Source: Amphiscolops sp. MND2022 (Eukaryota). Taken from it: 64,000 nt of DNA. Made by a program: the position numbers and the translations under genes. Shown piece after piece: positions 1 through 62,888 of the stretch. The stretch spans positions 74,526,001-74,590,000 of the forward strand of contig OZ076409.1 in the NCBI GenBank assembly GCA_964187785.1. The letters are read 5' to 3'. Each line of letters begins with the position of its first letter. Position 1 is the first letter of the stretch. The notes under the pieces are model-generated. The model searched no databases. It was not told the origin of the DNA and saw only the letters and a list, made by a program, of their open reading frames with translations.

Positions 1-2
1 GT

Positions 3-6424: not shown

Positions 6425-6471
6425 AACACTGATTGGCTGCCCCCAGCAGCCAATCAGTGTTTTCTGTCTAG
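6425..6471 (+). other. Candidate Helitron 3' terminal signal: perfect 16-bp-stem hairpin plus CTAG
   Basis: AACACTGATTGGCTGC-CCCCA-GCAGCCAATCAGTGTT, then TTCTGT, then CTAG, ~440 bp after the RepHel stop. The base following CTAG is C rather than the canonical T. Confidence 0.55.
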
Positions 6472-9936: not shown

Positions 9937-9982
9937 TGTGTGTGTGTGTGTGTGTGTGTGTGTTTGGTGCGTGTGTGTGTGT
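9937..9982. repeat. (TG)n microsatellite within a GT-rich low-complexity stretch
   Basis: A pure TG run at 9937-9962 and a second short run to ~9982. Confidence 0.95.
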
Positions 9983-10615: not shown

Positions 10616-12018
10616 GTGGTCGGGTATTTTTTTTACTCGTATATGACGTTTGCGAGGCTTTGGGGAGGGCCCCGTGCCGAGCCTGTTCCGAAAATCGCCA
10701 CATGTAGAAATCTGGCACTAAAATGTGAGATCTCAAAAAGTAGCCGTTAGAATTCTCTGAAATTTTGCATGTGGCTCAGAATTAATGAGTAATGAAAAAG
10801 TGTAGAAGTGAAGGTCGCTGAAAAAATGGTCCTTGTTGCACTTTTTGCGCAATTTTTGTCTGATTGTTGCGTTTTTTATGTCATTTTCGACTTTTCAAGC
10901 AAAAAACTCATGAATGCTTTGTTCCTAGCGCATCAAGTGTGGAGCACGAAAAGTTGCAGCATCTCCAAGTGCGTATGCTGAGAAAATTTGGTTGCCGTCG
11001 GGTTACCCCCCACAGAGCTAGAGGGGTACTTCCGGTTATTTTTGACCCCCTAAATTAGGTAAACTGCTAATTTTTGTAATGAAGCCGTAGATTTAGCGTG
11101 TCCGCACCCTGCTGAAGTTTTGTTAAACATTTTGAGAGAGACCCAATGACATGTGTTCAGTTCACCCCCCATCACCCCCTTGACCGGAAATGAACGTTTT
11201 TGTGCACTTTCAGACCGGATGTCTCCATTTTCACCGGTAAGGAGGCCTTGTACGACCAACTAGCAGGATATCAAAATTGAAGTATAACCCAGGGTCAACT
11301 TAATGACCACGTGTTGTCCAGTCATGGGTTTTACTATGACCGGAAATGGGCTCAAAACCCCACTTTTAGTAGTTTTTTATCAATTTGAATAGTGTTTGGT
11401 CCACATTCAGGTGGCGTAAGTCACTTGCACCAGTGTGAGTATTAACTGCATGTTCCCTGCGTAGACGTAACTGACACTGTCAGATACCGGAAGTAACCCC
11501 ATGTGGCCGGAAGTGGTCAATTTTGACCGGAAATGGTCCAAAAAGTAGCGTAAAAGCAGTTTTTCACTACTTTTTAGGGACAATTTTTTTACTTTTTTTC
11601 AATCTGAATGCCTCCTTTATACTACCAAAGCTAACATCGTTGCCTGTTTTGCTAAAGATTTGGCAATTGATTACCTTTATCAACCCCGATAGCCTTCCAA
11701 GTTGACCTTGGGTCAATCTTGAAGGCTATCTATACTTAAAACAAAAAATCGAGATAAGTTGTTTTCTCCATTACGTTGATAATTTTTCCTTGATGTCAAG
11801 TTGTTAAGCAAAGACTTTTAAGCAAATTAATGATCTGAATCTTGTTCAGAGGTCTCACCCTGAAGAAGATTATTTGAGATTGAAGTAAACTGAGAATGAG
11901 GTTAGTATTTGTCAACATCAGAGAATCTTATCAACGCCCACCGTCTGTGGGCATGCCGAGGCATGCCCTTCGACGACGTATGCCAAATAGCGCCACAGGG
12001 CGCCCACACTTTTGCTAG
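10616..12018 (+). mobile_element. Array unit, ~1.4-kb 'ACCGGAAGT' family
   Basis: GTG...CTAG ends, a triple CCGGAA motif at 11486/11506/11526, a GATAGCC...GGCTATC hairpin at 11688-11730 and the palindromic core at ~11931-11980. Related to the units starting at 27133, 39611, 52034 and 62889. Confidence 0.6.
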
Positions 12019-13088
12019 GTGGTCAAGGGGGATGCCCATCAGAAAATATTGCGAGGCCGGGGAGGGTCCCGAGAGCCGAGCACATTCTATCAATTCCTAC
12101 CTTCAGGATTGCGAAGTATTTTAACCGATCTCGAAATTCACCCGTAGGATTTGTCTGAAACTTTGCATGTGGCTTTATCTCAAAAATTTAAGAACTTTTT
12201 TCTGCTGACGTTTTTCCAGGAAAATTCATTTTGTAAGGTTTTTTTGCGTTTTTTTGGTTTTTTTCATCTTTTTTCATCTTTGATTAATCAATGACCGAAT
12301 CAAAGGCCATTTTCACCATGAAGGAAAGCCCGTAGCGGCAAAGTGCACTTTTATGAAAATCATCAACGGTCAACGGTCTTTCGAACGGTCCAAAAAATTT
12401 TCCCCCCGGGGGAAACCAAAGTGCCAAAAAGTGCCAAATATATTTTTTTGACTGAATCACTTTGATCAAATTGATGATTTGAGCAGCCGGAACGGTCCGC
12501 ACGGTCTCGGACAATAAGTTCAAAAATTGTCAGCATCCAATGGAGGTTCCAAAAATGTAATTCGTTCACCTGTAGGAGACATCAGAAAAAAGTTGATTTT
12601 TTGGAGTTTTGGCATTATGACTGATCGGATGATAAATCATTGCATCACGTTGAGTTGCATTTGATGCAGCACACGAAGCAGCTGCAGCGAACTTGAAACT
12701 GCTTAGGGGGCTGGGGTTTACTATCTGTAACAAGCAAAATATCCCTTGGGCAAAAGGTATGCCAAAAAGTGCCTCAAAGTGTTAATTAAGTTGTTGCAAA
12801 TCGGCTAGCAAAATTCATTGTCACCGGTGTTCCGTGAGTTGCGCAGCATCTCGCGGGAACAACGGTGCTTGTTTCGAACGCAAAACCCAACATACCTCTT
12901 TGGTGACGTGACGGAGGTCACCATTGGCCTTTTTCGGCAGTGTGATGATATTTTTATTGTTGAATTGTGAACAACATACACAAAAGATTTAGCGTGGGAT
13001 ATTTGTTTGTGTCATACTTCAGTAACAAACTTTCAACCGTTTTGTTTAGGCCTCTACCTAGCAGTGCTCTAAATCGCTCCATCGCTAG
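12019..13088 (+). mobile_element. Array unit, singleton 1070-bp family
   Basis: Bounded by CTAGGTG junctions. It shares the 5' GAGGGTCCC hairpin and the GATCTCG...GGATTTGTCTGAAACTTTGCATG box, but the body is unique. It has its own hairpin at 12822-12867 and lacks the GGGCATGCC core. Confidence 0.55.
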
Positions 13089-16000
13089 GTGGTCCGGTAC
13101 ACTACCAACAAAACATTGTCGCGAGCAACGGGGAGGGTCCTGTAGCGAGCTTTATAGGAAAAAAACGGCGGAGCATATATACTAGGCAACATCGGCACTT
13201 TTACCCACGATCTCTGAAATGAACCATACGATCCGGCTCAAAATTTGCATACGGCTTCCTCTAGCGATTCTAAGAACTTTTCCCTACTGGCATTTTGCCC
13301 GGAAAAATCAAAATGTTGGTCAAAATCTTAATTTTAGGGTCAAAAAACGACGTTTTTTCAAAAAAATTTTTTTGAGAGCACATATCTCGCTCCCAGGTGC
13401 CCGGAGCGGGTCGCACGTGGAGGTTGATATTGCTAGGCACTTCGTAAGGAGTCCGTAGACAAATTTTCGTCCAGATCAGATTAAAATTGACTGAGTAATT
13501 GTCGAAATTCTGACGATTTTTCTCGAAATTTTTTCACACCCTAGTCTATCTCTGCCGTTTTTCGCCCAGATTTTTTTCCAGGACCTCTCCTAAAGGCCTC
13601 CCCTGGCCGGTTTACCTCCCAGAAAAACCATTTGGCCCTTTTGCCGCAGTTTCAGCGATCCAGGATTCCCCGGGTAAAAGTAAAATGACTTAGAATTTTT
13701 TCGAAAAATTTTCAAAAAATTTTTTTTCAACTTTAGGCCTCCCAAAGTCAAGAAACGTCCAAACAACTAGTATTGCAAGTGGATGCATGTGGAAAGTGCT
13801 CGAATAGACGAGAAAAATGAGCTATTATAAACCTCTGTAGCTTAACTTGACGTTGACTTATGACATTTTTAGTGTGAGCTTGCTACGTGACAAAAAATTT
13901 CAAAAAATGAAAGTGGAAGCTAAGTCTCATCGGAATACGTTCAGTGGACCCCAGCGCTGTTTAAATGCCGCTGTTTAGTGCAGCAACGCCCTTTAAGGTC
14001 ATTTGATCCATTTTTTACAGGTTTTGACACCGTCTTATCCATTCGAAAGTTCGAAAGAGTTGTGTACATTCCATCTCCCCCCTTCTATGGGGGAGATGGT
14101 AATGTACACGCAAAAAGCCAAGTACTACTGTTCTTTTTATACTTGGAGTGGCCTCGGCAATGCAGTAGCGGGAGCTCCAGGTCGTTTGCCGTAGCCTTAT
14201 TGTCTGTTTAGACTTTGCTACAACAGAAACTATGTTACTGAACATGAAAAAGATTGTTTCAATCCAAATGTTTTTTCAAATAATAATACCAAATAACACA
14301 TGTCCATATATCCACTATTGCCACTAAATACTGGCGCATCGTCGCACAACGAAGCCTGCAGCGCTAGGTGGCCGTGTCTTTTCGACGTGCTTTTGCATCG
14401 AGGAGTGGGTAGGGCCCCGCGACGACCTAGAAGAATTGGATGCTCACCGAAACGTGCAGAATTCTACGAGATCTCATAGTTTGAGCCATACGATTTTTCT
14501 GAAATTTGGCATGTGGCCTGGAATTGGTGAGTAGGTAAAACGTGTAGGAGGTGATTTTTCCCAAATTCCACTGTGAGACGAGATATGGGCAAATAACGGT
14601 CCCAAAAATGGCAAAAATGCACTTTTTTCAACTTTGTCAGCCCATATCTCGTTCCCAGGTTCCCGGAGCGGGACGCGTTAAGCTGATTATAAACTCTAGG
14701 GTGTTGAGGCTGTACGGGGAAGTCAGACCCGTTCCGATCGGACTTGTAGTCTTGGAGAAATAACGGTATTTTTGGGGAACCTTTTCTAACGGTCCAGCTT
14801 ATCTTTGCCATTTTTTCGAAAATGTACTCGCCTAAAGGCCTCCCCCTGGCCGAATTTACTCCCAGCAAAACCATTTGGCCCTAAATACGGAGTTTCAGCG
14901 TTCCAGCATTCCCGGGCGAAAAGTTGTGGGACTTGGAAAATTTTCAAAAATTTTCAAAAAATTTTTTTTTCGTTTTCCGGGCCCCCAATGAAGGGGAAAC
15001 GACCCCCCAACCAGTATTTTGAGTGAATTCATGTGGAAAGCCCTTGTTTTGACGAGAAAAATACCGTTTAGAACATCTTTTTATCTTGACTCAACGTTGA
15101 CTTATGACGTTTTGAATGTGATGTAAGGATGTAGGAGGCATGTGATAAGTTGATGTTTTGAGTCTTTATCTCATATGAAAGCGGTTGAGATGCAAGCTGT
15201 CCTGCTCAAAACGTCTTTCGTTGTAACTTTCCAGTGCACCAATACCCTTTGGTGTCATATAAACATACTTTTTGTCGATATATTAACAATTTTAATGTAT
15301 TTATTCCAATTTTTATTATCTTATAACTCAAAACAGTTGAGTACATTTCATCTCCCTTTCGGGGGAGATGAGAATGTACTCGCTAAAGACCTAGCGCCAT
15401 GACCAAAAATTTGAAACCCACGTTTTTTATCTTCTTACAGACTTGTTTTTGTATTTTTTCGGAATTTTTTATAAATTAATATACTTGAAATACATTACTT
15501 GACTTTACTACTACAACCCACCTCCAACGACAACGCCCCCCTGCTTGCATCAACGCCCACCGTCCGTGGGCATGCCGAGGCATGCCCTTCGACGACGTAT
15601 GCCAAATGCCCAGTGCCACGCAGTCATTATCGCTAGGTGCCCGGATTTCTATTCATTAAAGTATGTTGCGCGTGTGGGTAGGGCCCCTGGCGCGCTCTTG
15701 TGTCCCTGTTCTCATAACTGCAATTTCCGGCAGCATTCTGAGCGATTTTCTAAACTATCCATACGATTCGGCTGAAATTTGGCACACGTACCCCCCTCGG
15801 CACGGTGAAGATGATTTCCTACTGACGTTTTTCCCGCAAAATTTTTTTTGTTGTCCAAAATAACGGTTTTTGGGGTAAAATTTTGAATTTTTTTTAAATT
15901 TTATCTTATATCTCGCCACGGGTTTACGCTAGCGCTTCAAAACCCTGCTAAAGAAAGCTTGCAAACTGTCTCAGGAATGCTGTGTGAAATTTTCAGCTCA

Positions 16001-19000
16001 ATCGGACTCAAACTCGGGGAGATATAGCGTTTTTCCGGAGCGGGGGGGTTTCATTTTTCTAACGGTCCAGCTTATCTTTGCCATTTTTTCGAAAATGCAC
16101 TCGCCTAAAGGCCTCCCCTGGCCGGTTTTATTCCCAGCAAAACCATTTGGCCCTAAATACGGAGTTTCAGCGTTCCAGCATTCCCGGGCGAAAAGTTGTG
16201 GGACTTAGAAAAGTTCAAAAATTTTCAAAAAATTTTTTTTCCGTTTTCCGCCCTCCCCCCCTAGGGGAAAAGACCCCCCAACCAGTAATTTGAGTGAATT
16301 CATGTGGAAAGGCCATGTTTAGAGGAGAAAAATGCCGTTTAGAACGTCTTTTTATCTTGGCTCAACGTTGACTTATGACGTTTTGAAGGTGGTGTTTGGA
16401 GGTGTAAAGCACGCGAATAGTAAACGTTATGAGTATTTATCTGATCTGAAAGCCATTGAGATGAATATGGTTTGCTCAAAACGTAATTCATGGCAGTTTG
16501 GCAATCAATCAACACCCTTTGTTGTCGTTTGACATACTTTTTTGTTGTTATAATAAAAAATTTTGTGTATTTATTCATTTTTTTCTCATCAAATAACTTG
16601 AAACAGTTGAGTACATTCCATCCCCCCCTTCCGGGGGAGATGAGAATGTACTCGCAAAAAGCACCGAACTACGGCCCTAACCTTCCCGAGCTACGCAGTA
16701 TAAGGATTACATATTGGTTCCGACATTTTCATAGAGTTAAATCTTGGTAATCTGTCTGGATATGCAGAAAAACCAGCACGTGCTTTTTTATACCAAGTTG
16801 CTTACAACGACAATTATTTTATATCAACGCCCCCATATTTATCAACGCCCCCCGTCCGTGGGCATGCCGAGGCATGCCCTTCGACGACGTATACCAAGAT
16901 ATTCCCGAGCGCGGTAGCCGCTAGGTGGTCCGGTACACTACCAACAAAACATTGTCGCGAGCAACGGGGAGGGTCCTGTAGCGAGCTTTATAGGAAAAAA
17001 ACGGCGGAGCATATATACTAGGCAACATCGGCACTTTTACCCACGATCTCTGAAATGAACCATACGATCCGGCTCAAAATTTGCATACGGCTTCCTCTAG
17101 CGATTCTAAGAACTTTTCCCTACTGGCATTTTGCCCGGAAAGTTCAAAAAGTGGGTCAAAATCTTAGTTTTTTGGTCGAAAAATAGCGTTTTTTTGGAAA
17201 AAATTTTTTTAAGAGCCCATATCTCGCTCCCAGGTGCTCGGAGCGGGTCGCATGTGGACGTTGATATTGCTGGGCACTTCTTAAGGAGTCCGTAGACAAA
17301 TTTTCGTACAGATCGGATGAAAATTGACTGAGTAATAGCCGCAAATCCGACGAATTTTTCAGAAAATTTTGGTACACCTAGTCTATCTCTGCAGTTTTTT
17401 GCCCAGATTTTTTTCCAGGACCTCTCCTAAAGGCCTCCCCTGGCCGGTTTACCTCCCAGAAAACCCATTTGGCCCTTTTGCCGCAGTTTCAGCGTTCCAG
17501 GATTCCCCGGGTAAAAGATAAATGACTTAGAATTTTTTCGAAAATTTTTCAAATTTTTTTTTTTCAACTTCAGGCCCCCCAAAGTCAAGAAACTTCCACA
17601 CAACTAGTATTGCAAGTGAATGCATGTGGAAAGTGCTCGAATAGACGAGAAAAATGAGCTATTATAAAGTTCTGTAGCTTAACCTGACGTTGACTTATGA
17701 CAATTTTAGTGTGAGCTTGCTATGTGAGAAAAAATTTCATAAATTGAAAATCGAAGCTAAGTCTCATCGGAATACGTTCAGTGGACCCCAGCGCTGTTTA
17801 AATGCCGCTGTTTAGTGCAGCAACGCCCTTTAAGGTCATTTGATCCATTTTTTACAGGTTTTGACACCGTCTTATCCATTCGAAAGTTCGAAAGAGTTGT
17901 GTACTTTCCATCTCCCCCCTTCTATGGGGGAGATGGTAATGTACACGCAAAAAGCCAAGTACTACTGTTCTTTTTATACTTGGAGTGGCCTCGGCAATGC
18001 AGTAGCGGGAGCTCCAGGTTGTTTGCCGTAGCCTTATTGTCTGTTTAGACTTTGCTACAACAGAAACTATGTTACTGAACATGAAAAAGATTGTTTCAAT
18101 CCAAATGTTTTTTCAAATAATAATACCAAATAACACATGTCCATATATCCACTATTGCCACTAAATACTGGCGCATCGTCGCACAACGAAGCCTGCAGCG
18201 CTAGGTGCCAATCCCCCCCGGGATGCCACAGCTTCGAGGGCGGGGTAGGGCCCCCTGCCCGAGTCCAAATCCAACGGCGCTAAACTTCGCGCCTATAACG
18301 TAAGGCGTTTTCCATTTCTAGAGGCGATCTCGAAAACGGCCCTATAGAATTGGCTCAAAATTTGCATACGGCTTCCTCTAGCGATTCTAAGAACTTTTCC
18401 CTACTACCGTTTTGCCCAAAAAAATTTTTTTGTTGACTTATAGACAATTTTAGGTGCCGAAAATGGCGTTTTTTCGAAAAAATTTTTTTCAAGAGCCCAT
18501 ATCTCGCCCCCAGGTGCTCGGAGCGGGTCGCATGTGGACGTCGATATTGCTGGGCACTTCGTAAGGAGTCCGTAGACAAATTTTCGTACAGATCGGATGA
18601 AAATTGACTTAGTAATAAAAAACTTTGATTTGCATTTTTTCGAAAATTTCTGAAAACCCAGTCTATCTCTGCCGTTTTTTGCCCAGATTTTTTTCCAGGA
18701 CCTCTCCTAAAGGCCTCCCCTGGCCGGTTTACCTCCCAGAAAAACCATTTGGCCCGTTTGCCGCAGTTTCAGCGTTCCAGGATTCCCCGGGTAAAAGTAA
18801 AATGACTTAGAATTTTTCGAAAAATTTTCAAAAATTTTTTTTTTCAACTTCAGGCCTCCCAAAGTCAAGAAACGTCCACACAACTAGTATTGCAAGTGAA
18901 TGCATGTGGAAAGTGCTCGAATAGACGAGAAAAATGAGCTATTATAAACCTCTGTAGCTCAACCTGACGTTGACTTATGACAATTTTAGTGTGAGCTTGC

Positions 19001-27132: not shown

Positions 27133-29309
27133 GTGGATGGTATTTTATAACAATTAAAGTGTTTTTTTCCGGAGTTTGTGGCTTTGGAAAAAACAAAAGG
27201 CGAGAAATTGGGCACTCCAGGCTGAACCTAAAAACACCCTAAAATTGGCCCGATTTTTTTACGATCTCGAAACCCAGCCGTACGATTTGGCTGAAAATTT
27301 GCATGTGGCTCCTAATCAATGAGTAATGAAAAAGTGTAGGAGTGACTTTTCCTGACAAAATTGTTTTTGTTGCACTTTTTGCGCAATTTTTGACCGATTG
27401 TTGCGTTTTTTATGTCACTTTTGACTTTTCAGGCAAAAAACTCATGGATGCTTTGATCCTAGCGCATCAAGTGTTTTGACCAAAAAGTTGCAGCATGTTC
27501 TTTTACGTATGCTGAGAAAATTTGGTTCCCATCGTATTACCCCCCACTGAGATAGAGGGGAACTTCCGGTGGATTTTAGCACCCTAAAAACGAGGACCTC
27601 CTAAATTTCAGCATGAAGCGGTAGTTTTAGCGTGCTCATACCATGCTGAAGTTTTGTTGGGCATATTGAGATAGTTATGATATCATGTGTTCAGTTCACC
27701 CCCCATCACCCCCTGGACCGGAAATGAACTTTTTTGTGCACTATCATACCGGAAGTCTCCAATTTCACCGTTAAGCAGTCCTTGTACGAGCAACTACCAG
27801 GACATCAAAATTGAAGTACCACCTGAGGTCAACGCAGTGACTACGTGTTGTCCAGTCATAGGTTCCGCTATGACCGGAAATGGGGTCAAAACCCCCTTTT
27901 TTGGATGTTTTTCAACAATTTGACCAGTGTTTGGTCCACATTCAAGTCGCGTGAGTCAATTGAATCAGTGTGAGCATAAACTGTGTGTTCACTGCGTAGA
28001 CGTAACTGACACTGACAGATACCGGAAGTAACCCCCCGTGACCGGAAGTTGTCATTTTTGACCGGAAATGGTCCAAAAAGTAGCGTAAAATTAGTTTTTC
28101 ACTGCTTTTTAAAGTAAATTTTTTACTTTTTCAATCTCCGCGAGCTTGTATTCAGGTTCGTTTTTGTTACCCGTGCACTTTGCAACAAATATACACCTGT
28201 AAAATTTTCTCTATGATATCGTTGGATAGAGAAATAACGTGTTTTTGGGACTTTTTTTTCAAAAATATTAGACTATATCTGTCATTTTAGCGAAAGTTAG
28301 TCAACAGTACAACCGCAGTCGTTAGTCTCTGCCCAAATCAATGCCTAACAAACCTATATGGCCCATTGACCCAATTTGAGCGTTCCAGCTTTGCGTGGTC
28401 AAAAATAAGGGACTTGAAAAATTTTCAATTTTTTTCCAAAAAAAATTCTCACATTCATGTCTCCCAAAGTAAAGAAACTTCCACACAACTAGGATTGCAA
28501 GTGGATGCATGTGGCAAGCCCTATAATTGAAGAGAAGAAAGCCGCTTAGGACGTCTCTTTATCGTAATTTGACGTTAACGTATGGTGCTTTGAATGATAG
28601 CTTGATAAGGTGTCGAGAAGTCAAAGAATGTAAAAGGAACGTATATGTCGTCGAAAAGTCATCGGAATATATACAGTGAACCCCAATTACACTCAATTGC
28701 AGTTGCCTAGTGCAACGACGTCTTTCAAGGACATTTTACCCATTTTCATAATTATCGAAATTTTTTTAAATTCAGTTACCAAGAAACACTTGAGTACATT
28801 CTCATCTCTCCCCATAGGGTGAGATGAGAAAGTACCTGCTAGAAGCCTGGTACTACGGCCCACTTTTGTTTTATTGCGACGCATTCTGTGCTTTGGCACA
28901 TATATAATTTTACTTCGTCTGACCTTTGGTATACACTCTGACTTGTCATTATATATTTCCCGTCATCAATTACTTTGCATTAAATAAATTTACTACCATA
29001 CAACCTTAACGTCATCGCTACATAAATTTAGACGTCCACCATTCCGTAGGCATGCCGAGACATGCTTTTCGACGACGTATGCCAAAACACAAAAGCCAAC
29101 AAAAATGCTGAAATTCAGAAAGAGTGACAAACAAATTTGACTATCTGACATATGGTAGGTTTTTTGTATGGAACTTACACATCACTGATATTTCACAACA
29201 TTCCAGCTGACGCCCACATACCAACATCAACGCCCACCGTCCGTGGGCATGCCGAGGCATGCCCTTCGACGACGTATACGAAGATATACATAAACGCGGT
29301 AGCAGCTAG
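27133..29309 (+). mobile_element. Array unit, 2177-bp composite (ACCGGAAGT-family 5' half, diverged main-family 3' half, two cores)
   Basis: ~27290-28120 resembles ~10760-11590. ~28340-28860 resembles the main-family second half. There is a degenerate core at ~29032-29080 and an intact core at ~29228-29277. Confidence 0.55.
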
Positions 29310-39610: not shown

Positions 39611-40999
39611 GTGGTTGGGGCGGTCCCCAGAACGCACAAGGAGGCGCGGGGAGGGTCCTGCGCCGACGTAGAATAATTTCATATAATACTAGTATCCTAC
39701 ATGGGTGTTTTAGAGGCGATTTTGGAATCTAACCGTAGGATTTGGATAATTTTTTGCATGCGGCCATAACTCGAAATTCTAAGAACTTTTTCCTACTGTC
39801 ATTTTCCCCGCAAATTGTTTTTTGTTGACTTATGGCCGAAAAACCGGAAATAACGTCCTTTTTAGACGTTATATCCGAAGTGTCGTCATAACTTTTTTCC
39901 AGGGCATGCTAGCGTTCTCGTTCACTTTTACACTTAGTTGCAGCATCTCAAAATACAACTGGTGGAAAATTTTGGTTGCATTCGGATCACCCCCCACCGA
40001 GATAGAAGGGTTCCCCCCTCAAGTTTTACCCCCCAAATTTGCAAAATAGCCAATTTTGAGCATGAAGCCGAGGATTTAGCGTACCCGCACCCTCCTGATG
40101 TTTTGTTGTACGTATTGGGGTCAATCTGACGACATGTGTGGTTTTCACCCCCAACCCCCCCTTGGACCGGAAATGACACTTTTTTGTGTTTTTTGGCAGA
40201 ATTTAGCCTTTTTCATTATTAGGCAGTCGTTTTAGGGACTCCTAGCAGGATATCGAAATTGAAATACAACCTGATCACAACCCAGTGACAACATGTTGGC
40301 CACTTGGAGGTATCATCATGACCGGAAGTTGGGGTCAACCCCCCTTTTTGTGACCGCTTTTTGACCTTGTGCACCAAAATGCCAACATCTTGAGGCCTAA
40401 TGAGGCATTCAAATCTGTACAAAGATAAAATATTAGACAACCGAAGTCCCGGAAGATCTTTAGCATATACCGGAAGTTACCCCCCATGACCGGAAGTTAC
40501 CCAATGTGACCGGAAATGGTCCAAAAATTAATGTAAAGTTGAATTTTTCACTATTTCAAGACCACTTAATTGAAACTTTTCAATCTCAAAACTAGCGTAT
40601 TGGCTTGTTTTGCTGAATTTATGGAAATTGATGAGCCCTATCACCCCCGATAGCCTTCGAAGTTGACCTTGCGTCAACTTTGGAGGCTATCGATACTGAA
40701 AATGAACAACAAAGTACATTGTTGCTCTCGGTTTTTTCCCGTTGTTTTTCCTCAAACATTCTTGAGACATTTACATGGCCGTTAGTTGAAATCAATATTT
40801 AGCCCATGTTATAGCTGGACCAGCGAAGCGTTACACAGACTAGTGTGGTTTTGAAATTACATTATTTAAATTAACAACAGATCGTTTTAGTCAACTCCAC
40901 ACATTCATACCAACGCCCACCGTCTGTGGGCATGCCGAGGCATGCCATTCGACGACGTATGACGAATCCACTCCAACGACACCCGCAGTCCTCAGCTAG
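39611..40999 (+). mobile_element. Array unit, 1389-bp ACCGGAAGT subfamily (near-identical to 52034-53421)
   Basis: Head GTGGTTGGGGCGGTCCCC; CCGGAA trio at 40469/40489/40509; hairpin at 40648-40692; core present. Confidence 0.6.
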
Positions 41000-43900: not shown

Positions 43901-44869
43901 AGTTTGCAAACTGTCTCAGGAATGCTGTGTGAAATTTTCAGCTCAATCGGACTTAAACTCGAGGAGATATAGCGTTTTTCCGGAGCGGGGGGGTTTCATA
44001 TTTCTAACGGTCCAGCTTATCTTTGCCATTTTTTCGAAAATGCACTCGCCTAAAGGCCTCCCCTGGCCGGTTTTATTCCCAGCAAAACCATTTGGCCCTA
44101 AATACGGAGTTTCAGCGTTCCAGCATTCCCGGGCGAAAAGTTGTGGGACTTAGAATTTTTCAAAAATTTTCAAAAAATTTTTTTTCCGTTATTTGGGCCC
44201 CCAAAGTGGGGGAAAGCACCCCCCAACCAGTAAAGCAAGTGAATGCATGTGGAAAGCCCTTGTTTAGAGGAGAAAAATGTCGTTTAGAACGTCTTTTTAT
44301 CTTGGCTCAACGTTGACTTATGACGTTTTGAAGGTGATGTTTGGAGGTGTAAAGCACGTGAATAGTAAACGTTATGAGTATTTATCTGATCTGAAAGCCA
44401 TTGAGATGCAATATGGTTTGCTCAAAACGTAATTCATTGCAGTTTGGCAATCAATCAACACCCTTTGTTGTCGTTTGACATACTTTTTTGTTGTTATAAT
44501 AAAAAATTTTGTGTATTTATTCATTTTTTTCTCATCAAATAACTTGAAACAGTTGAGTACATTCCATCCCCCCTTCCGGGGGAGATGAGAATGTACTCGC
44601 AAAAAGCACCGAACTACGGCCCTTACCTTCCCGAGCTACGCAGTATAAGGATTAGATATTGGTTCCGACATTTTCATAGAGTTAAATCTTGGTAATCTGT
44701 CTGGATATGCAGAAAAATCAGCACGTGCCTTTTAATACCAAGTTGCTTACAACGACAATTATTTTATATCAACGCCCCCATATTTATCAACGCCCCCCGT
44801 CCGTGGGCATGCCGAGGCATGCCCTTCGACGACGTATACCAAGATATACATAAGCGCGGTAGCCGCTAG
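41000..44869 (+). repeat. Run of 3 main-family units
   Basis: Junctions at 40996, 42285, 43575 and 44866. Confidence 0.9.
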
Positions 44870-46885
44870 GTGGTCGGGGTTTTCTCCCCACCTTTATTTG
44901 CGAGCGCGGGAGACGGGTCCTATCGCGAGCCTTAGATACCAAAAATAGCCTATCCGCGACCGGGTCAAAAAAATGCGATCTCGAAAACTAGCCGTACGAT
45001 TTGGCTGAAATTTGGCACACGGCTTCCTATAACAGTTCTAAGAAACATTTACTACTGACGTTTTGCTGGCAAAAATCGAAAAGTGGGTCAAAATAACGGT
45101 TTTTGGGGTAAAAAGTAGCGTTTTTTTGAAAATTTTGCATTTCACAGCCAATTACTCGGAAATGGTCGATCCAGCGCAGTAACGCCTTGCTGATTTATTG
45201 TTGGGCACGTCAAGAGGCGTACGTACACAAATTTTGGTCCATATCGGACTGAAACTTGGGGAGATATTAACGGTAGTTTGGGGGTTTCAAACCGCTATTT
45301 TACAGGAAATTGCACTTTTTGACCGGGAAGGAGTTGTCTGAGTGCGGGGTCGTTTGGTAATGTTTTGTAGAGCATCTGGGGACGTAGTGGGGGACATGTA
45401 ATTTAATGACCCCGGTTAACCCCTCGGACGGGAAATGACCGTTATGTGGGTTTTAAATGTGGCCCCCGCCAATTTTCCCCGTTATTTCCGGTGTGAAGGA
45501 GTGGTAGTAGCGCGTCGGGTGCCTTATATCAAAAGTACGTTTAGACAAGGACCTATTGGAAACATGTGGTTTGGGACCCTTTGAACGGACCCGTTAGCCG
45601 CTAATGGGGTGACTGCCTCCTTTTTTTGGGGGTAATACCGTAAAACGGGCATTGAAGTGAAATTAACTCGTGAACGCGTGGAGCTATCGTGTCCTTCACT
45701 ACTACAAGGTTTCATACCCATGATATGGTGCCTTCAGGGGGGCGAACAGATTTCCGCTATCTATCACCGTTACGGACTTGGCCCCCCAGCCTAACCGCTA
45801 TGTGACCGGAAATGTCACTTTTTGAGCCCAAAGTGTCGGTCCCAGCGTGGCAACGTTAGGTAACATATTGTAGTACACATTGAGACGAGTCGGGGGATTT
45901 AGTTTCAGTCACACCCTGTTGGCCCGTTAGGTCGGAAATGACCGTTATGTAGTGAAAAATGGGATTTTAATAGTTTTTGAAGGCCATTTCGGGCAGGAAG
46001 GAGGGGTAATATGACTTTGGACACCATATGATGGAAGACGTGAAGTGTGACGAGCATTCCGGATTAACCGTTATGATGACCCGGAAGTCCCCCTGGCCCC
46101 GGAAATGACCAAAAAAATGTAACATTTTGTGTTTTATGATTAAAAATGTTTGTTATTTAACCGAATAAAGTACATGTTAGGTGTTTCAATTTCTTCCAGA
46201 GGTGAATATAGTCCAATTACATGGTGGGGGGTAACGGTATATTGCCCCGGAAGTCCAACCCGTTGGGTCTGAGTATGTTTTTCGGGTTTTAAAATGTGTC
46301 AAAACGTACTTTTGTGTAATAAATCTCTATTGTAGGCTAATAAGGACCATTTTTGAAGAGTTTAAATTTTTTCATAGTAGTTTGTGGAACACCAAAACCT
46401 CAAAAAACATAACCGTTATAATATGATAGCCTTTCAAGTTGGCCTTGTGTCAACTTGGAAAGGCTATCCTTCAAGACTCATGCAACAAAGAAGTTTTTGG
46501 GTACATTTGTAATGCTTTAGTGTCAATTAGAGTATCAACAAGAGTATACCAAGCACTAAAACTATGTCTAGTTTTCGTTATTAGGATATTAGTTTCCTTA
46601 ATATTTGTCGGAAATGCTTTTTTTAATCTCTTTTAATGTGGTCTAAATACTCTGAAAACACTTTATCGAACCAATTTTCTTGGATGAACCTTAGTAACAA
46701 TACTAAAAATCGTAGACAACCTTGCTTCGTTTAAATATTTGAAGCTGAAACCGCACCTTACCGTTGCTCAAACTTCAACCCGACGCCCCATAGCATACAT
46801 CAACGCACATCGTCTGTGGGCATGCCGAGGCATGCCCTTCGACGACGTATGCCAAATACCTTTAACCCGACGCCCGCAGTCCTGG
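44870..46885 (+). mobile_element. Array unit, singleton ~2.0-kb family
   Basis: Main-family-like first ~400 bp followed by a unique body with CCGGAA motifs. GATAGCC hairpin at 46425-46468, core at ~46801-46850, degenerate junction CTGGGTG at 46882. Confidence 0.55.
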
Positions 46886-49800
46886 GTGCCCTAATCCATC
46901 GATTTGCTCAACACTTCGAGGGCAGGGTAGGGCCCCTTGCCCGAGCCAAAAAGTCGGATACTTACGACAGACAACTTAAGGCGATTGGGACAGTCTGACC
47001 CCGATCTTCTAAACGAGCCTATCGATTTGGCTCAAATTTTGCATGCGGCTTCCTCTAGCAATTCTAAGAAGTTTTCCCTACTACCATTTTGCCCGGAAAA
47101 TTTTTTTTGTTGACTTATAGACAATTTTAGGTGCCGAAAATGGCGTTTTTTTGAAAAAATTTTTTTTAAGAGCCCATATCTCGCTCCCAGGTGCTCGGAG
47201 CGGGTCGCATGTGGACGTCGATATTGCTGGGCACTTCGTAAGGAGTCCGTAGACAAATTTTCGTACAGATCGGATTAACATGGACTGAGTAATAGCCGAA
47301 ATTCGGACGCATTTTGTCGACATTTTTCGAAAACCTAGTCTATCTCTGCCGTTTTTTGCCCAGATTTTTTTCCAGGACCTCTCCTAAAGACCTCCCCTGG
47401 CCGGTTTACCTCCCAGAAAAACCATTTGGCCCTTTTGCCGCAGTTTCAGCGTTCCAGGATTCCCCGGGTAAAAGTAAAATGTCTTAGAATTTTTTCGAAA
47501 AATTTTCAAAAAAAATTTTTTTCAACTTCAGACCATCCAAAGTCAAGAAACGTCCACACAACTAGTATTGCAAGTGGATGCATGTGGAAAGTGCTCGAAT
47601 AGACGAGAAAAATGAGCTATTATAAACCTCTGTAGCTTAACCTGACGTTGACTTATGACAATTTTAGTGTGAGCTTGCTATGTGAGAAAAAATTTCAAAA
47701 ATTGAAAATCGAAGCTAAGTCTCATCCAAAACTCATCGGAATACGTTCAATCCATACCAAAGCGGTTTGTTCCCAGTTGTAGAGTGCAGCAACACCATTC
47801 AAGGTCATTTGACCCACTTTAATAGGTTTTGACTTTGTCTTATCCATCCGAAAATTCGAAACAGTTAAGTACATTCCATCTCCCCTCCGTGGGAGATGGT
47901 AATGTACTCGCAAAAAGCCAAGTATAACCGCCCTATTCTACCCGTAGTGGTGCTAGAAGAGCAGTAGCGTGAGCTCCAGGTTTGCAGTAGTCTCTATGTG
48001 TTATAATTATATTTTTCATAGCTAAAAATCTTACTAAACGTGATAAAAAAAATTACATCACTCAAAATTTTTTCAAATATTATTATATGTCCCCAATTGA
48101 CGCACGTCAACTATTTCACTACAACCACCCTACCACCCGGCCCCTCGTATCTTTGTTCAACCGTACACGTCTAGGTGCCCGGATTTCTATTCATTAAAGT
48201 ATGTTGCGCGTGTGGGTAGGGCCCCGTGGCGCGCTCTTGTGTCCCTGTTCTAAAATCTGTAATTTCCGGCAGCATTCTGAGCGATTTTCTAAACTATCCA
48301 TACGATTTGGCTGAAATTTGGCACACGTACCCCCCTCGGCACGGTGAAGATGATTTCCTACTGACGTTTTTCCCGCAAAATTTTTTTTGTTGTCCAAAAT
48401 AACGGTTTTTGGGGTAAAATTTTGAACTTTTTTTAAATTTCATCTTATATCTCGCCACGGGTTTACGCTAGCGCTTCAAAACCCTGCTAAAGAAAGCTTG
48501 CAAACTGTCTCAGGAATGCTGTGTGAAATTTTCAGCTCAATCGGACTCAAACTCGGGGAGATATAGCGTTTTTCCGGAGCGGGGGGGTTTCATTTTTCTA
48601 ACGGTCCAGCTTATCTTTGCCATTTTTTCGAAAATGCACTCGCCTAAAGGCCTCCCCTGGCCGGTTTTATTCCCAGCAAAACCATTTGGCCCTAAATACG
48701 GAGTTTCAGCGTTCCAGCATTCCCGGGCGAAAAGTTGTGGGACTTAGAAAAGTTCAAAAATTTTCAAAAAATTTTTTTTCCGTTTTCCGCCCTCCCCCCC
48801 TAGGGGAAAAGACCCCCCAACCAGTAATTTGAGTGAATTCATGTGGAAAGGCCATGTTTAGAGGAGAAAAATGCCGTTTAGAACGTCTTTTTATCTTGAC
48901 TCAACGTTGACTTATGACGTTTTGAAGGTGATGTTTGGAGGTGTAAAGCACGCGAATAGTAAACGTTATGAGTATTTATCTGATCTGAAAGCCATTGAGA
49001 TGAATATGGTTTGCTCAAAACGTAATTCATGGCAGTTTGGCAATCAATCAACACCCTTTGTTGTCGTTTGACATACTTTTTTGTTGTTATAATAAAAAAT
49101 TTTGTGTATTTATTCATTTTTTTCTCATCAAATAACTTGAAACAGTTGAGTACATTCCATCCCCCCCTTCCGGGGGAGATGAGAATGTACTCGCAAAAAG
49201 CACCGAACTACGGCCCTAACCTTCCCGAGCTACGCAGTATAAGGATTACATATTGGTTCCGACATTTTCATAGAGTTAAATCTTGGTAATCTGTCTGGAT
49301 ATGCAGAAAAACCAGCACGTGCTTTTTTATACCAAGTTGCTTACAACGACAATTATTTTATATCAACGCCCCCATATTTATCAACGCCCCCCGTCCGTGG
49401 GCATGCCGAGGCATGCCCTTCGACGACGTATACCAAGATATACATCGAGCGCGTTAGCCTAGGTGCCGGGATTTCTATTCGATAAAGTAAGTTGCGCGGT
49501 TGGGTAGGGCCCCGTGAGCGCGCCCGTGTCTGTGTTTTTTGAACCTGAATTTGCGGGTGCCAAAATAGACGATCTCCTAAACTATCCATACGATTTGGCT
49601 CAAATTTGGCATACGGGTTCCTGAGACAGATATAAGAACTAATTCCTACTGGCGTTTTGCCCGGAAAATTTTTTTTGTTGCCCAAAATTGAAATTTTCGG
49701 CAAAAAAATGCGATTTTTTTTGAAAAATTTTTTTTGAGAGGCCATAACTTTTTTCAGGGAGCCCGGAGCGGGACGCGTTAAACTGATTATAAACTCTACG

Positions 49801-55774: not shown

Positions 55775-57753
55775 GTGGGCGGGGGTAATTCCCCTTCAAA
55801 AAATTCGGCCGGCGGGTTGGGTCCTGCCGGACGTCAAATAGTGTGAAACATCCAGTAGGAAACGGCGACATAAATCAGCGATTTTAAAATTTAACCGTTA
55901 GAATTCGGACTTGGAGTGCATGCGGCCCCAAAATGCCCATACGAATCGAAGTTCCTGCTGACGTTAAGCGATAAAAACATTTTATAAAAAGTTATGGCCC
56001 ATTTTACGTTCACCTATAAGGGTAAAATGAGGAAAATTTTTACAAAGTCGCTGATAACTCAAAATACATTAATTTTTGGACTTTGACTGTGAAACAAGCT
56101 TAGAACCTTCATTTCGTGGCTGTGGCATTGCACTGAACACAAAAGATGTAAAGTTTTTACATTTTTTGAAAATTCGACATTTTTGATTTTTTTTCACTAC
56201 TATCAGTACACTATATGTCAAAAACACCTCTGAAAAAAATTTTTTATTTGCTTAAAATTGGAAACCTTGGTATCCATGGTTTCTGTCGGAACCTACTAAT
56301 TGCCAAACACCCAACAGTTTGCATCCAATGTGAAATTAAAATTTTTTTTGAGGTCTTAGGTGTTTCACAAGGATTTCTCAACTTAGTTTCAATTTACAAA
56401 TTGGTCATATTGAACACAATATTTTCATCGAGGCTTGTCGGCTATAACCTTAATGTTCTAGAACGGTCCCACTGGCAACGTAGGAACCATTTATAGTAAT
56501 AGAAAGTTTTAAAAAATTTTTTCATCCGGTCTTCGGTCATTTTTCAGTCATTCGGAACTTAACTTAGAAAAATTTCGATCAAAATACCCAATTTTGTCAG
56601 GTCGAAAATTCAAATTCAGATTTTTAAGCAAAATTATTAACTCTGACGTAACCCATGGGGCCCATGATACTCAAAACAACGATTGACACTGGTATCAATG
56701 GCTCCAATAACATATGACTCGCGATAAGACGTTATTTTGAGCAATACGTCTCAATTGAGGTAAAGATCTCGCAAACCAGCGATCACTGTGAAATGTGATT
56801 TCATCAAAAATTTACCCATTTTTGTCAATCACTATGTGCACAGAATGCGTAGGGTGCGTTTCAGCAATATAATGAGGTTTTTGAAGGCATCGAGTTGCTC
56901 AAGGGGTGGTATGAGACATTTTCGTCCCATGTACTACTGTATATTGCAAATTTTTTAGCCCATTATCTGAAAAACTAACTTGACAAAATACTTTCAACTA
57001 CTTTATTCAAATGTTACAATGTAGATGAACCCAGTGGTTGATCAGAAACTTTCATCTCTTTCGTTTTCCGAAATAATTCCCTTCGAATGTGTTACATTTG
57101 TAGCAGGAAAAAAACCGAAACTAAAAAATACGCGATTTTGCTGAGATAGAATCGCAACGGTTGCGCCTAAAATCTCTTTAAATACTTCTAACGCAACTTT
57201 ACGGACCCAAATTGATTGAAAATGCCATTCACAATGCTGACATGTGCTCTTTCTACGATCCTGGCTGGACAAGTTTTGCATTTTTTTCAAGTACCTGTTA
57301 ACTGAACATTGTGATAGCCTTTCAAGTTGGCCTTGTGTCAACTTGGGAAGGCTGTCACATCAAAAAACTGTCAACAAAAATACCACTCGTTTATAGGAAA
57401 TTGCTGTTGATGCCTAATTTTGTGATTCGATCATGTCGTGAGTTCCTTCCATCAGGTCAGCTAACAATTGGATTCAGTGTTTGATAAGAACAATTGATTT
57501 TTTTGACAATTTTCGTTTTTTCTTGCAAAGAAAAAGTACAAATAAACAATATAAAACAAAATTGTAACCTTTAGGAAGTTTAACTTTACCTTTTTTAACC
57601 GTTACGATCACTTTCGACCCTGTACGACCTCGCAATGTCCTTATTACAACGCCACATAGTGTAGCGACGCCCACAGTCTGTGGGCATGCCGAGGCATGCC
57701 CTTCGACGACGTATGCCGAATGCACTGCGGCTACGCCCGCAGTCACCGGCTAG
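55775..57753 (+). mobile_element. Array unit, singleton ~1.98-kb AT-rich family
   Basis: Head hairpin CCGGCGGG-TTGGGT-CCTGCCGG, unique body, GATAGCC-type hairpin at 57311-57358, core at ~57667-57714. Confidence 0.55.
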
Positions 57754-60700: not shown

Positions 60701-62888
60701 ACAGATCGGATAAAAATTGACTGAGTAATAGCCGCAAATCCGACGAATTTTTCAGAAAATTTTGGTACACCTAGTCTATCTCTGCCGTTTTTTGCCCAGA
60801 TTTTTTTCCAGGACCTCTCCTAAAGGCCTCCCCTGGCCGGTTTACATCCCAGAAAAACCATTTGGCCCTTTTGCCGCAGTTTCAGCGTTCCAGGATTCCC
60901 CGGGTAAAAGTAAAATGACTTAGAATTTTTTCGAAAAATTTTCAAAAAATTTTTTTTTCAACTTCAAGCCTCCCAAAGTCAGGAAACGTCCACACAACTA
61001 GTATTGCAAGTGAATGCTTGTGGAAAGTGCTCGAATAGACGAGAAAAATGAGCTATTATAAACCTCTGTAGCTCAACCTGACGTTGACTTATGACAATTT
61101 TAGTGTGAGCTAGCTATGTGAGAAAAAATTTCAAAAATTGAAAATCGAAGCTAAGTCTCATCCAAAACTCATCGGAATACGTTCAATCCATCCCAAAGCG
61201 GTTTATTTCCAGCTATATAGTGCAGCAACACCAGTCAAGACCTTTTGACCCATTTATATTAGTTTTGACACCGTCTTATCCGTTTGAAAGTTCGAAACAG
61301 TTAAGTACATTCCATCTCCCCTCCGTGGGAGATGGTAATGTACTCGCAAAAAGCCAAGTACTACCGCCCTATTCTACCCGGAGTGGTGCTAGCAATGCAG
61401 TAGCGTGAGCTCCAGGTTGTTTGCAGTAGCCTTTACGGGTGTTGTGACTATGCATTACAAGTCTAACTATGTTACTGAACGTGAAAAAATTGTTTCACTC
61501 CAAAATTTTTTTTCTACTATTTTATGTCATCAATTAAGATATATCCATCCATTTACTACTACCTACCCCATCACCCGCCCCCTCCACTATCTGTTCAACC
61601 GTACACGTCTAGGTGCCGGTGTCTTTTTACACAATGGGGGAAGTTGCGCGGTTGGGGAGGGTCCCTGACGCGCTTCCGTGGTTTCGGGTCTTCTAACCTA
61701 TGATAGCGTGACACCTGACTTCGATCTCGTAAACTAGCCGTACGATTTGGCTGAAATTTGGCACACGTACCCCCCTCGGCACGGTGAAGATGATTTCCTA
61801 CTGACGTTTTTCCCGCTAAACATTTTTTGTTGACCAAAATAACGGTTTTTGGGGTAAAATTTTGAATTTTTTTTAAATTTCATCTTATATCTCGCCACGG
61901 GTTTACGCTAGCGCTTCCAAACCTTGCTGACGAAACCTTGCAAACTGTCTCAGGAATGCGGTGTGAAATTTTCAGCTCAATCGGACTCAAACTCGGGGAG
62001 AAATAGCGTTTTTCCGGAGCGGGGGGGTTTCAATTTTCTAACGGTCCAGCTTATCTTTGCCATTTTTTCGAAAATGCACTCGCCTAAAGGCCTCCCCTGG
62101 CCGGTTTTATTCCCAACAAAACCATTTGGCCCTAAATACGGAGTTTCAGCGTTCCAGCATTCCCGGGCGAAAAGTTGTGGGACTTAGAAAAGTTCAAAAA
62201 TTTTCAAAAAAATTTTTTTCCGTTATTTGGGCCCTCAAAGTGGGGGAAAAGACCCCCCAACCAGTAAAGCAAGTGAATGCATGTGGAAAGCCCTTGTTTA
62301 GACGAGAAAAATGCCGTTAAGAACGTCTTTTTATCTTAACTTGACATTGACTTTTATCGTTTTGAAGGTGACCGTTAGATACGGAAAATTGATGTTTTGA
62401 GTATTTATCCCATCTGAAAGCCATTGAGATACAACATGTTTTGCTCAAAACGTATTTCATTGCAGTTTCGCTGTCCATTATCACCCTTTGGTGTCTTTTC
62501 ACGTAATTTTCGTTTCTATAATAACAATTTTTTTGTGTATTTATTCATTTTTTTCTCATCAAATAACTTGAAACAGTTGAGTACATTCCATCTCCCTTCC
62601 CGGGGGAGATGAGAATGTACTCTGCTAAAGGTCAGGAACTACGGTCTATATCTTCCACAACACAAAAGGGATTGCAAATGGTTTCAGTTTGTCGCAGAAA
62701 ACTTCTTTTTGCCCTCTGTGACTCGACAAAATGAACGTTTCTTACTTACTTTGAAACTCATCATACCACAACTCATCTCTAACGTCAGCGCCCCCCTACT
62801 TGCATCAACGCCCACCGTCCGTGGGCATGCCGAGGCATGCCCTTCGACGACGTATACCAAGATATACCTGGAGCGCGGTAGCCGCTAG
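57754..62888 (+). repeat. Run of 4 main-family units
   Basis: Junctions at 57750, 59038, 60318, 61609 and 62885. Confidence 0.9.

Follow-up and report, generated by a model that had tools for sequence, protein, structure and literature searches.

The 64,000-nucleotide window from Amphiscolops sp. MND2022 contains a RepHel gene followed by a head-to-tail array of 39 complete non-coding cassettes (10616..62888, + strand), with a 40th cut by the window end. The cassettes are Helitron-like and non-autonomous. Each of them contains exactly one hairpin (39/39), always in the 3' part and in the same orientation. More striking than the hairpins is the array itself with its free reshuffling. For the hairpin we suggest, at slightly less than an even chance and from sequence analysis, that it may be a clade-typical 3' signal which would be read on the displaced strand and license termination once the next full junction is reached. 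In the literature covered, which includes few subscription papers, neither a mixed Helitron cassette array nor such a hairpin was found described.

The RepHel gene and the cassette array

The enzyme encoded in the window is a Y2 RepHel of about 2350 aa with an HUH motif, two tyrosines (YxxxY) and a PIF1 helicase, and it is the sole source of long open reading frames within the window. A frame break near 2330-2370 splits the gene into a 5' frame (3..2372, + strand), which is open at the window start and contains Rep motif 1 and the HUH motif (Helitron_like_N, 1.3e-06), and a 3' frame (2326..5985, + strand), which contains the YxxxY tyrosines, the PIF1 helicase (2.2e-09) and a degenerate C-terminal GIY-YIG region. 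An unbroken relative, P0001, has 2351 aa and is 96% identical. The nearest named protein is from Styela clava (27%), the match of the clade to Helitron_like_N is weak, and no RepHel relatives were found among viral contigs. The GIY-YIG domain is C-terminal in the RepHel clade and degenerate in the lineage of the window. Pfam scans of 10 proteins gave no match to the HLE2 markers DUF6570 or AP endonuclease.

A RepHel with a GIY-YIG domain is also found in Sphagnum HelenSM92 of HLE2 (PMC11417382). However, HelenSM92 is described as a single HLE2 family that has TIRs and inserts at T|T, while here the domain is clade-wide and occurs without DUF6570, which by description sets the two apart. The supplements of PMC11417382, which cover unclassified HLEs, could bear on whether the RepHel clade is already catalogued.

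The gene has its own clade-type hairpin 439 nt past the RepHel stop (6425..6461, + strand; perfect, 16 bp, z -7.6), and a CTAG (6468-6471) starts 6 nt beyond it. Two blocks (3.6 and 3.7 copies) of 296-bp tandem units follow (6602..8931, + strand); each unit folds as an imperfect hairpin of about 190 nt, with the + strand favoured in three of the four folded units. The RepHel-side segment closes with a cassette-type 3' end at the first junction, CTAG^GTG (10612..10618, + strand). Within 650 nt of its end at 10615 there is no cassette-type hairpin; its strong hairpin lies 4.15 kb upstream of the end and is perfect, unbulged and without CTT.

The 40 junctions delimit 33 complete cassettes of family A, five of family B and one of family C, with lengths of 1070-2177 bp, mostly 1270-1295 bp. 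In the junction CT[AG]G^GTG, where ^ marks the presumed cut position, six of the seven positions are unchanging across all 40 copies. The 3' end is CTRR throughout, 39 times as CTAG and once as CTGG (the sole variant junction, CTGG^GTG, 46882..46888, + strand). The 5' end is GTG at 40/40 junctions, not the TC of HLE1 Helitrons, and no A|T target bases are retained. The junction palindrome had no match in metagenome or viral contigs, and ARAGORN found neither tRNA nor tmRNA.

Neighbouring cassettes belong to different families in near-random order: the 40 junctions display 34 distinct end combinations, compared with 36.4 under random pairing. Mosaic cassettes and block duplications are also present. 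Tandem Helitron arrays are usually explained by concatemer replication of one element, from which such a mixed-family order is not expected. The head-to-tail RTS-LTS junctions are shared with the plant and bat tandem Helitron arrays cited in PMC5876387, but unlike in those arrays different families adjoin here.

The A, B and C cassettes share a left-end motif (+104 to +215, example copy 15740..15851, + strand; E 5e-27 to 2.5e-4), thus only their hairpins are unrelated. The first-pass annotation had described three unrelated sequences, which holds for the hairpins and not for the cassettes that host them. An inverted copy of the motif lies inside the cassettes at about +310 to +395. Closer to the end, at about +30 to +60, there is a left-end hairpin with the core GG[GT]AGGG[CT]CC (example copy 15668..15695, + strand), whose stems differ among cassette types (mean z -1.6, 29 distinct sequences). 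Between this hairpin and the shared motif lies a hypervariable segment of about 45 nt (+61 to +105, example copy 15697..15741, + strand), which gave no folding signal (mean z -0.1, 28 sequences). The most conserved block of family A (+444 to +545) has no convincing consensus structure. At the other end, an 18-bp palindrome (example copy 16861..16878, + strand) stands 40-65 nt before the junction; it is missing in 10 of the 39 cassettes, and in seven of these no fold of the last 42 nt falls below -1.0 kcal/mol. Only some cassette end types have a short hairpin at about 11 nt from the 3' end. HLE2 elements have terminal inverted repeats of 12-17 nt and a T|T target; by eye, no such repeats are evident at the cassette ends. 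An internal cassette period of about 265 nt was considered and is unsupported.

In several respects the system is like Helraiser/HLE1 (PMC4778049, PMC5876387, PMC11417382): both have a RepHel with HUH, two tyrosines and PIF1, a 3' CTRR, precise head-to-tail junctions and a 3' hairpin with a variable stem. It differs from HLE1 in the GTG 5' end, in the junctions without A|T and in the C-terminal GIY-YIG domain of its clade. Furthermore, the Helraiser palindrome is 19 nt long and lies 11 nt from the end (PMC4778049), while the cassette hairpin is bulged and much farther away. The Paramecium chromosome-end Helitrons (PMC13085455) likewise form a clade outside HLE1/HLE2 with targeted insertion and alternative right ends, and they have satellites between the ORF and the right end as well as a randomly ordered mosaic repeat. 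However, those elements have telomeric-repeat targets, CCAA ends and mosaic units of about 44 nt, whereas here elements of about 1.3 kb have their own ends.

The hairpin: geometry, constraint and relatives

In all 39 cassettes the hairpin is the lowest-energy 52-nt DNA fold (-15.1 to -21.0 kcal/mol), and for five representatives folded on the + strand z ranges from -2.6 to -7.0 relative to dinucleotide shuffles. There are 19 distinct alleles (14 A, 4 B, 1 C) with 17-20 pairs and loops of 3-7 nt. A profile of the A hairpin has no match in B or C cassettes. The hairpin families are unrelated in sequence but have one geometry in common, as the first-pass annotation had claimed, and every hairpin it named is located where it said. 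Its distance of 220-410 nt to the junction must be revised to 221-472 nt.

All hairpins are on the + strand. The 33 copies of family A span 14062 to 62622, the last one in the window being 62579..62622, and the commonest allele is represented by 16609..16653. The allele at 14062..14109 has the one compensatory pair, and the compensated variant noted earlier is real. In a chimeric cassette whose 3' end is doubled, 472 nt separate the most degraded A hairpin (28792..28837) from the junction. Family B comprises 11688..11730 (288 nt before the junction), 40649..40691 with an identical allele at 53071-53113, 46425..46468 (417 nt) and 57313..57356 (397 nt), while family C has a single copy (12822..12867, 221 nt).

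The single extrahelical base reported for the 3' arm is present in 36 of the 39 hairpins and is A, T or G in family A. It is absent at 28792, 40649 and 53071. In the other copies it follows pair 9-10 in family A (pair 7-10 in printed folds that have lost outer pairs), pair 11-13 in B and pair 11 in C, and is not fixed in position. The G-T pairs of the + strand, described for B, were found in B and C, with seven over five alleles (one common to two alleles) and none when these hairpins are folded on the - strand. This does not extend to family A, which has no + strand preference and whose commonest alleles have A-C mismatches on the + strand. A CTT at the loop is seen in 4/4 B alleles and 10/14 A alleles; C is without it. 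Neither the prokaryotic genome collection nor the viral contigs contain the A pattern. One viral match to the B pattern, in which the 3' arm does not continue, was taken as chance. Run X1 (share 0.08, low-depth contigs) spans the B and C hairpin regions, and among the 40 of 71 differences listed those near C lie outside the hairpin; it is not counted as support.

The hairpin arms have changed about six times more rarely than their flanks, with 0.38 against 2.37 changes per site, and the loops are variable. In family A, 11 of the 17 pairs are unvarying and one covaries, a count matched by 172 of 500 shuffles. The conservation is real but mainly of sequence, so the idea of recognition by shape alone is weakened. 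What remains of the structural recognition element proposed in the first-pass annotation is that the hairpin is constrained and tied to an HUH-type RepHel. Stem changes in A amount to about four breaks, two wobbles and one double change, which at this low power break pairing about as often as chance transitions. Such neutral breakage had been named beforehand as evidence against the proposal, yet the changes themselves are six-fold rarer than in the flanks.

In a comparison of the B cassettes with hairpins at 57313 and 46425, the hairpin forms an island of 92% identity within bodies of about 50%, i.e., shuffle level. Slowly evolving hairpins that are unrelated between families, together with faster left ends that are still alignable, point to module replacement, a pattern that cargo RNA explains equally well as a signal hairpin. 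At +10 to +13 after the A stem, a C..G tetramer is found in 10 of 11 subtypes, as CTRR in three. An unused CTAG lies between hairpin and junction in 17/39 cassettes, and in two subtypes it stands at the canonical spacing from the hairpin.

Hairpins also lie behind other RepHel genes of the clade. Eleven loci were compared, i.e., the window and 10 non-redundant distant loci out of 44 fetched, selected for at least 1.3 kb downstream of the match. In nine of them the strongest hairpin of the locus is 9-1008 nt past the RepHel stop codon, and in two the best hairpin is elsewhere. These post-RepHel hairpins occur in loci of 31-45% GC. The one at L019 resembles family A in its outer stem of 9 bp, its single bulge on the 3' arm and its TCTTG loop. 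CTT at the loop occurs in 5/9 post-RepHel hairpins versus 6/42 other hairpins (Fisher p = 0.009 for 5/8 versus 6/41, excluding the weak L004 hairpin, for a motif picked post hoc after data inspection). The 44 metagenome loci have no DNA similarity to 5986-64000 of the window and contain no cassette array, the longest extending only about 5 kb beyond the match. The hairpins at the distant loci could act in mRNA.

Possible functions of the hairpin

If the hairpin is a termination signal, the array can be read as follows. A RepHel, probably from an intact copy elsewhere, would nick a junction, peel off the + strand and release a circle. During this rolling-circle copying the hairpin is predicted to fold on the displaced + strand, where it is a candidate signal for RepHel and may slow or re-arm the enzyme, as the 3' hairpin of Helraiser does. 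Cleavage would then wait for CTRR together with the left end of the next cassette, bypassing the nearest CTAG, and circles would re-enter at existing junctions, giving a shuffled array. The A hairpin could once have been an ordinary right end, since the C..G tetramer starts 10 nt after it, with about 260 nt added later by read-through.

This termination reading is favoured by the hairpin being kept even in the 10 cassettes without the short palindrome and by the G-T pairs in B and C, which favour the + strand. Further points for it are the slowly changing arms, the B island, the post-RepHel hairpins with CTT at many of their loops, the C..G tetramer behind the A stem and the junctions with their near-random end combinations. 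In Helraiser the hairpin loop is needed while the stem is exchangeable (PMC4778049), and + strand RTS-LTS junctions are cut precisely (PMC5876387). However, the variable 221-472 nt to the end contrast with about 11 nt in known terminators. The unused CTAG, the RepHel-side segment without a near-end hairpin, family A without strand bias and the distant loci without DNA similarity to the array also speak against it.

Conserved arms with variable loops, and unrelated sequences of one geometry, would also suit a short hairpin RNA gene in each cassette, Drosha-independent and shRNA- or miR-451-like, in which host machinery imposes the centrally bulged shape of about 19 bp and the three sequences are independently captured cargo. 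The G-U pairs of B and C would fit as well, as the - strand is costlier as RNA (e.g., -25.0 versus -14.8 kcal/mol), and so would the long hairpins of the nearby 296-bp units with their + strand bias. We nevertheless regard such genes as unlikely. The stems of 17-20 bp fall short of the 30-35 bp of canonical miRNA hairpins (PMC12553114), on which the earlier pre-miRNA alternative fails, and 16 representative alleles folded with flanks have no consistent lower stem. Would-be seed positions vary among A alleles, and a comparison of 6000-34000, with hairpins of A, B and C included, against Rfam returned just two weak matches, both below gathering score. The best match of the arms in 1-10615, the RepHel region, is 14 of 22 nt, and a comparable hairpin stands behind RepHel genes in loci of 31-45% GC. 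Quite unlikely, in our judgement, is an sso-like second-strand origin on the released + circle, at which host primase or a small primer would start the minus strand. In rolling-circle plasmids an sso is typically found directly upstream of the nick, and the different sso classes have no sequence relationship. This counts for such an origin, as do the place of the hairpin on the displaced strand, a short way upstream of the origin, its single copy per cassette and its exchangeability as a module. PMC5876387 adds that Helraiser circles transpose only if double-stranded, that transfected single-stranded circles stay unconverted and that its authors proposed a minus-strand primer; an sso is used by host enzymes alone (PMC5714925). 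On the other hand, host primase would more likely tolerate compensatory drift, while family A keeps its sequence, the CTRR relic behind the A stem suggests that this hairpin began as a terminus, and no eukaryotic transposon sso was found in the literature searched.

Mosaic cassettes and block duplications, together with the stem changes that break pairing as often as chance, would be compatible with a functionless relic of the old right end whose copies stay alike through fold-back repair or through gene conversion in the array. This reading is already disfavoured and seems improbable: fold-back repair would predict compensatory changes and bulge loss rather than a six-fold lower rate, the bulge persists in 36/39, no cassette lacks the hairpin, and three unrelated sequences converge on 17-20 bp. 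The first-pass annotation had likened the hairpin to attC and REP sites, and the mid-stem bulge and the cassette-array organisation do recall them. The REP guide at the 5' foot is GTAG, with GGAG as a variant, and on either strand it was found in 0/39, as were attC boxes. Since the crossover also lies outside the hairpin, it is neither attC nor REP, and a site proper of this type, where a recombinase binds the bulged hairpin and cuts inside it or guide-directed at its foot, is extremely improbable. No IntI or Y1 TnpA is found in the window, and the absence of the A pattern from the prokaryotic and viral collections agrees with this. Integrons with attC (PMC5027507) do share an enzyme gene followed by shuffled cassettes, an unchanging short core for the crossover and, in each cassette, a single imperfect hairpin. 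However, attC is defined by RYYYAAC and GTTRRRY boxes at the hairpin feet, while here there are no R'/R'' boxes, the enzyme is an HUH helicase-nuclease and the cassettes are non-coding. An attC site has two or three extrahelical bases; the cassette hairpins have one 3'-arm bulge in 36/39, variable in base and position. REP/TnpA-REP and IS200/IS605 (PMC8266576) also combine an HUH enzyme with single-stranded, mid-stem-irregular hairpins and cleavage outside the hairpin, and in E. coli REP the mid-stem bulge is needed for HUH cleavage at CT sites 5' or 3' of the hairpin; they differ in the guide, the Y1 transposase and a much shorter hairpin-to-cut distance.

More broadly, it can be speculated, although we think it rather unlikely, that the array is a eukaryotic integron-like system. 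A Helitron lineage that has lost its GIY-YIG nuclease would then employ RepHel for site-specific recombination at CT[AG]G^GTG, reshuffling 1-2-kb cassettes stored behind its own gene. Each cassette would have an exchangeable 19-bp hairpin module (a short RNA or second-strand priming site) and, as its identity segment, the hypervariable 45 nt.

In the current view, a Helitron terminates at a small hairpin 11 nt upstream of CTRR and inserts at A|T, with few other preferences. In this array a terminal hairpin is frequently absent, every cassette keeps a longer, bulged one hundreds of bases upstream, and a single heptamer is the precise joint between elements of several families. A hairpin that licenses termination at a distance would alter the model of how Helitrons terminate and capture genes; one that primes the second strand would bear on an open question from the Helraiser work. 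Under either reading, integration at a defined junction would make RepHel a eukaryotic rolling-circle integrase targeted by sequence. The array would offer a natural way to test how Helitrons terminate and select their targets, and unbroken natural RepHel copies exist for testing.

Structure and constraint of the cassette hairpins

From 10616 onward, 39 complete cassettes stand head-to-tail behind the gene for RepHel (the Helitron rolling-circle transposase), followed by one truncated by the window end. Each complete cassette contains exactly one hairpin of about 45 nt, and the places given in the first-pass annotation are confirmed for family A (33 cassettes, e.g. 16609-16653), B (five; 11688, 40649, 46425, 53071 and 57313) and C (one; 12822-12867). 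In 39/39 cassettes, no 52-nt DNA fold is better than that of the hairpin, with z-scores of -2.6 to -7.0 for five example hairpins. From its end to the junction, the heptamer between adjoining cassettes, there are 221 nt in C, 255-272 nt in 32 A cassettes, 288-308 or 397-417 nt in B and 472 nt in a single chimeric cassette whose 3' end is doubled.

All 19 distinct alleles form 17-20 pairs, 17 of them have a single-base bulge in the 3' arm (absent at 28792 and in the 40649/53071 allele), and a profile of the A hairpin finds no match in the B and C cassettes. Thus, the convergence of three unrelated sequences on one shape is real, but it is looser than the equivalent bulge first described. The G-T pairs reported for the + strand do favour this strand in B (and C), whereas A has no such bias, and its commonest alleles have A-C mismatches there.

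The outer arms of A show 0.38 parsimony changes per site versus 2.37 in 200 flanking sites (32 of 33 A cassettes, the chimera excluded), and only one other 45-nt window of these cassettes is better conserved than the hairpin. Two B cassettes are 92% identical in the hairpin window, while their bodies align no better than shuffles. Conserved unpaired bases flank the hairpin at both feet. The constraint is mainly at the sequence level: in 12 of 14 A alleles, 11 of 17 pairs are invariant, a single pair changes on both sides (a number that 172 of 500 shuffles attain) and five cells are unpaired. The few changes in the A stems disrupt pairs at roughly the rate that random transitions would, which, at low power, is roughly the outcome named beforehand as evidence against recognition by shape. 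A further change on both sides is found in the outermost B pair, C-G at 40648 and T-A at 57312. The hairpin is a real, constrained and testable element with a putative role.

The RepHel gene and the hairpins behind its relatives

The RepHel gene consists of a 5' frame already open at the window start (3-2372) and a 3' frame (2326-5985), together matching Helitron_like_N and PIF1, with the Rep motifs, HUH and YxxxY all intact. An unbroken relative of 2351 aa is 96% identical, and eight more long relatives (52-94% identity) are found on long ENA contigs. The closest named protein, from Styela clava, is 27% identical, and every look-alike among protein models belongs to a eukaryotic PIF1/Helitron cluster. 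A C-terminal GIY-YIG match is present in 6 of 8 clade members scanned, but its motif residues are gone from the window RepHel and its closest relatives. In the alignment of clade proteins, this domain (~5640-5800) is degenerate in the window lineage, but most relatives, some of them likewise from long ENA contigs, retain it intact. The loss may be coupled to junction targeting.

RepHel has its own hairpin at 6425-6461, a perfect stem of 16 bp followed by 6 nt and then CTAG. Its arms are inverted CCAAT boxes (NF-Y consensus), and it could have a second role as a promoter element. Further on, 6602-8931 contains about seven 296-bp units, arranged in two duplicated blocks of 1.27 kb. Each unit folds to a ~190-nt hairpin, with the + strand favoured as RNA in three of four units folded, and the units may form a small-RNA cluster of the long-hairpin kind, carried downstream of the RepHel gene.

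Scanning metagenome contigs with a profile identified 44 RepHel loci with 22-41% protein identity and no DNA similarity to the array. Hairpins were surveyed in ten non-redundant loci with at least 1.3 kb past the match and in window 1-10615, using script-chosen stop codons. The locus-wide strongest hairpin lies 9-1008 nt past the stop codon in 9 of these 11 loci; in L009 and L036 it is elsewhere, and the one after the stop in L004 is weak. Seven loci (L008, L011, L012, L015, L019, L022 and L042) have one strong 27-51-nt hairpin each downstream of the stop, several followed by T-rich runs. The L019 hairpin, with nine outer pairs, a single 3'-arm bulge and a TCTTG loop, has the family A shape. 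A CTT at the loop, a motif picked post hoc, occurs in 5/9 post-RepHel hairpins versus 6/42 others; it is also present in families A and B, though absent from C. A C..G tetramer begins at +10 after the A stem in 10 of 11 subtypes and equals CTRR in three. In Helraiser, the hairpin loop is described as needed and the stem as exchangeable (PMC4778049). Together with the CTAG behind 6425-6461, these features link the hairpin with the cycle of the element itself and suggest an origin as a right-end hairpin.

Possible roles of the hairpin

The hairpins had been likened to attC sites or REP elements. Both identities are rejected: the attC boxes (as defined in PMC5027507) and the REP guide (as defined in PMC8266576) are each found in 0/39, the crossover point is not within the hairpin, and RepHel is a Y2 enzyme. 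The part of the comparison that holds up is the ability of HUH enzymes to recognise a bulged single-stranded hairpin and cleave at a distance from it.

For Helraiser, it is established that the + strand is nicked and displaced, with the 3' hairpin as terminator (PMC4778049, PMC5876387), and that circles have precise RTS-LTS junctions, are cut on the + strand junction only, and integrate only if double-stranded (PMC5876387). Each array junction would then be a ready-made origin, so that a cassette could be freed between two junctions and re-enter at a junction. We suggest, at slightly below an even chance, that the long hairpin arms termination, while the cut needs CTRR and the next left end. 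This would account for the decayed short terminal hairpins (the 18-bp palindrome is missing from 10/39 cassettes, and in seven of these the final 42 nt hardly fold at all) and for the internal CTAGs skipped in 17/39. Both also count against a simple terminator, as does the RepHel-side segment ending at 10615, which lacks a hairpin of this kind in its last 650 nt.

A short hairpin RNA with putative expression would also be in keeping with arms that are conserved, loops that vary and a shape that converges, but the stem is below the length needed for the canonical route and we find this rather unlikely. A site for second-strand priming, improbable in our view, would fit the position as well as a question left open in the account of PMC5876387. 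That the hairpin is a neutral relic is very improbable, as it leaves the low change rate and the retained bulge unexplained.

The cassette array and its junctions

The 40 junctions (10612-62891) read CT[AG]G^GTG, with six of seven positions invariant and the seventh deviating once. The 20 3'-end types and 16 5'-end types occur in 34 distinct combinations, where random pairing expects 36.4 (5th percentile 34), so the ends are near-freely reassorted at the heptamer. This looks like site-specific joining by RepHel; homologous exchange within cassettes and block duplication are also seen. A left-end motif at ~+104 to +215 (counted from the cassette's left end) is common to all types tested. We take the cassettes to be non-autonomous elements partnered with the RepHel clade and presumably mobilised by this enzyme.

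Most cassettes also have a small left-end hairpin at ~+30 to +60, with stems differing by type and z below -1.5 in 15/29 distinct sequences. Its stems (e.g. 15668-15695) vary yet still pair in most types, around a conserved core. Its place beside the junction makes it more promising as a site of shape-read recognition than the 45-nt hairpin is. The following segment, +61 to +105 (~45 nt; e.g. 15697-15741), is only 45-66% identical in 16 cassettes, with at least seven alleles and no folding signal found in it, while the central bodies of these cassettes are mostly 90-100% alike. A second hypervariable stretch of 7-8 nt lies 15-22 nt before CTAG. The most conserved block of A cassettes, +444 to +545 (e.g. 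16080-16181), shows no clear structure, is lacking in B and C, and is deleted from the cassette at 54693. The chimeric cassette 27133-29309 joins a B-type body to an A-type 3' part; its first 3' end is decayed (~29050-29110) and a complete one follows ~200 bp on, as expected from read-through capture.

Tandem Helitron arrays are already in print, as are target-specific Helitrons in Paramecium (described in PMC13085455) and one GIY-YIG-bearing HLE2 family (in PMC11417382); PMC6431247 and PMC8788227 describe extra RepHel domains other than GIY-YIG. In the main texts of the open-access literature, we found neither an array of mixed cassettes that share an invariant CTRR^GTG junction nor a remote long hairpin. 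Two end features of HLE1 are absent from the cassettes, and protein markers of HLE2 are lacking; we therefore file the system as a variant working like a Helitron and leave it unassigned between HLE1 and HLE2. The reassorting junction array is more surprising than the hairpin and worth study in its own right.
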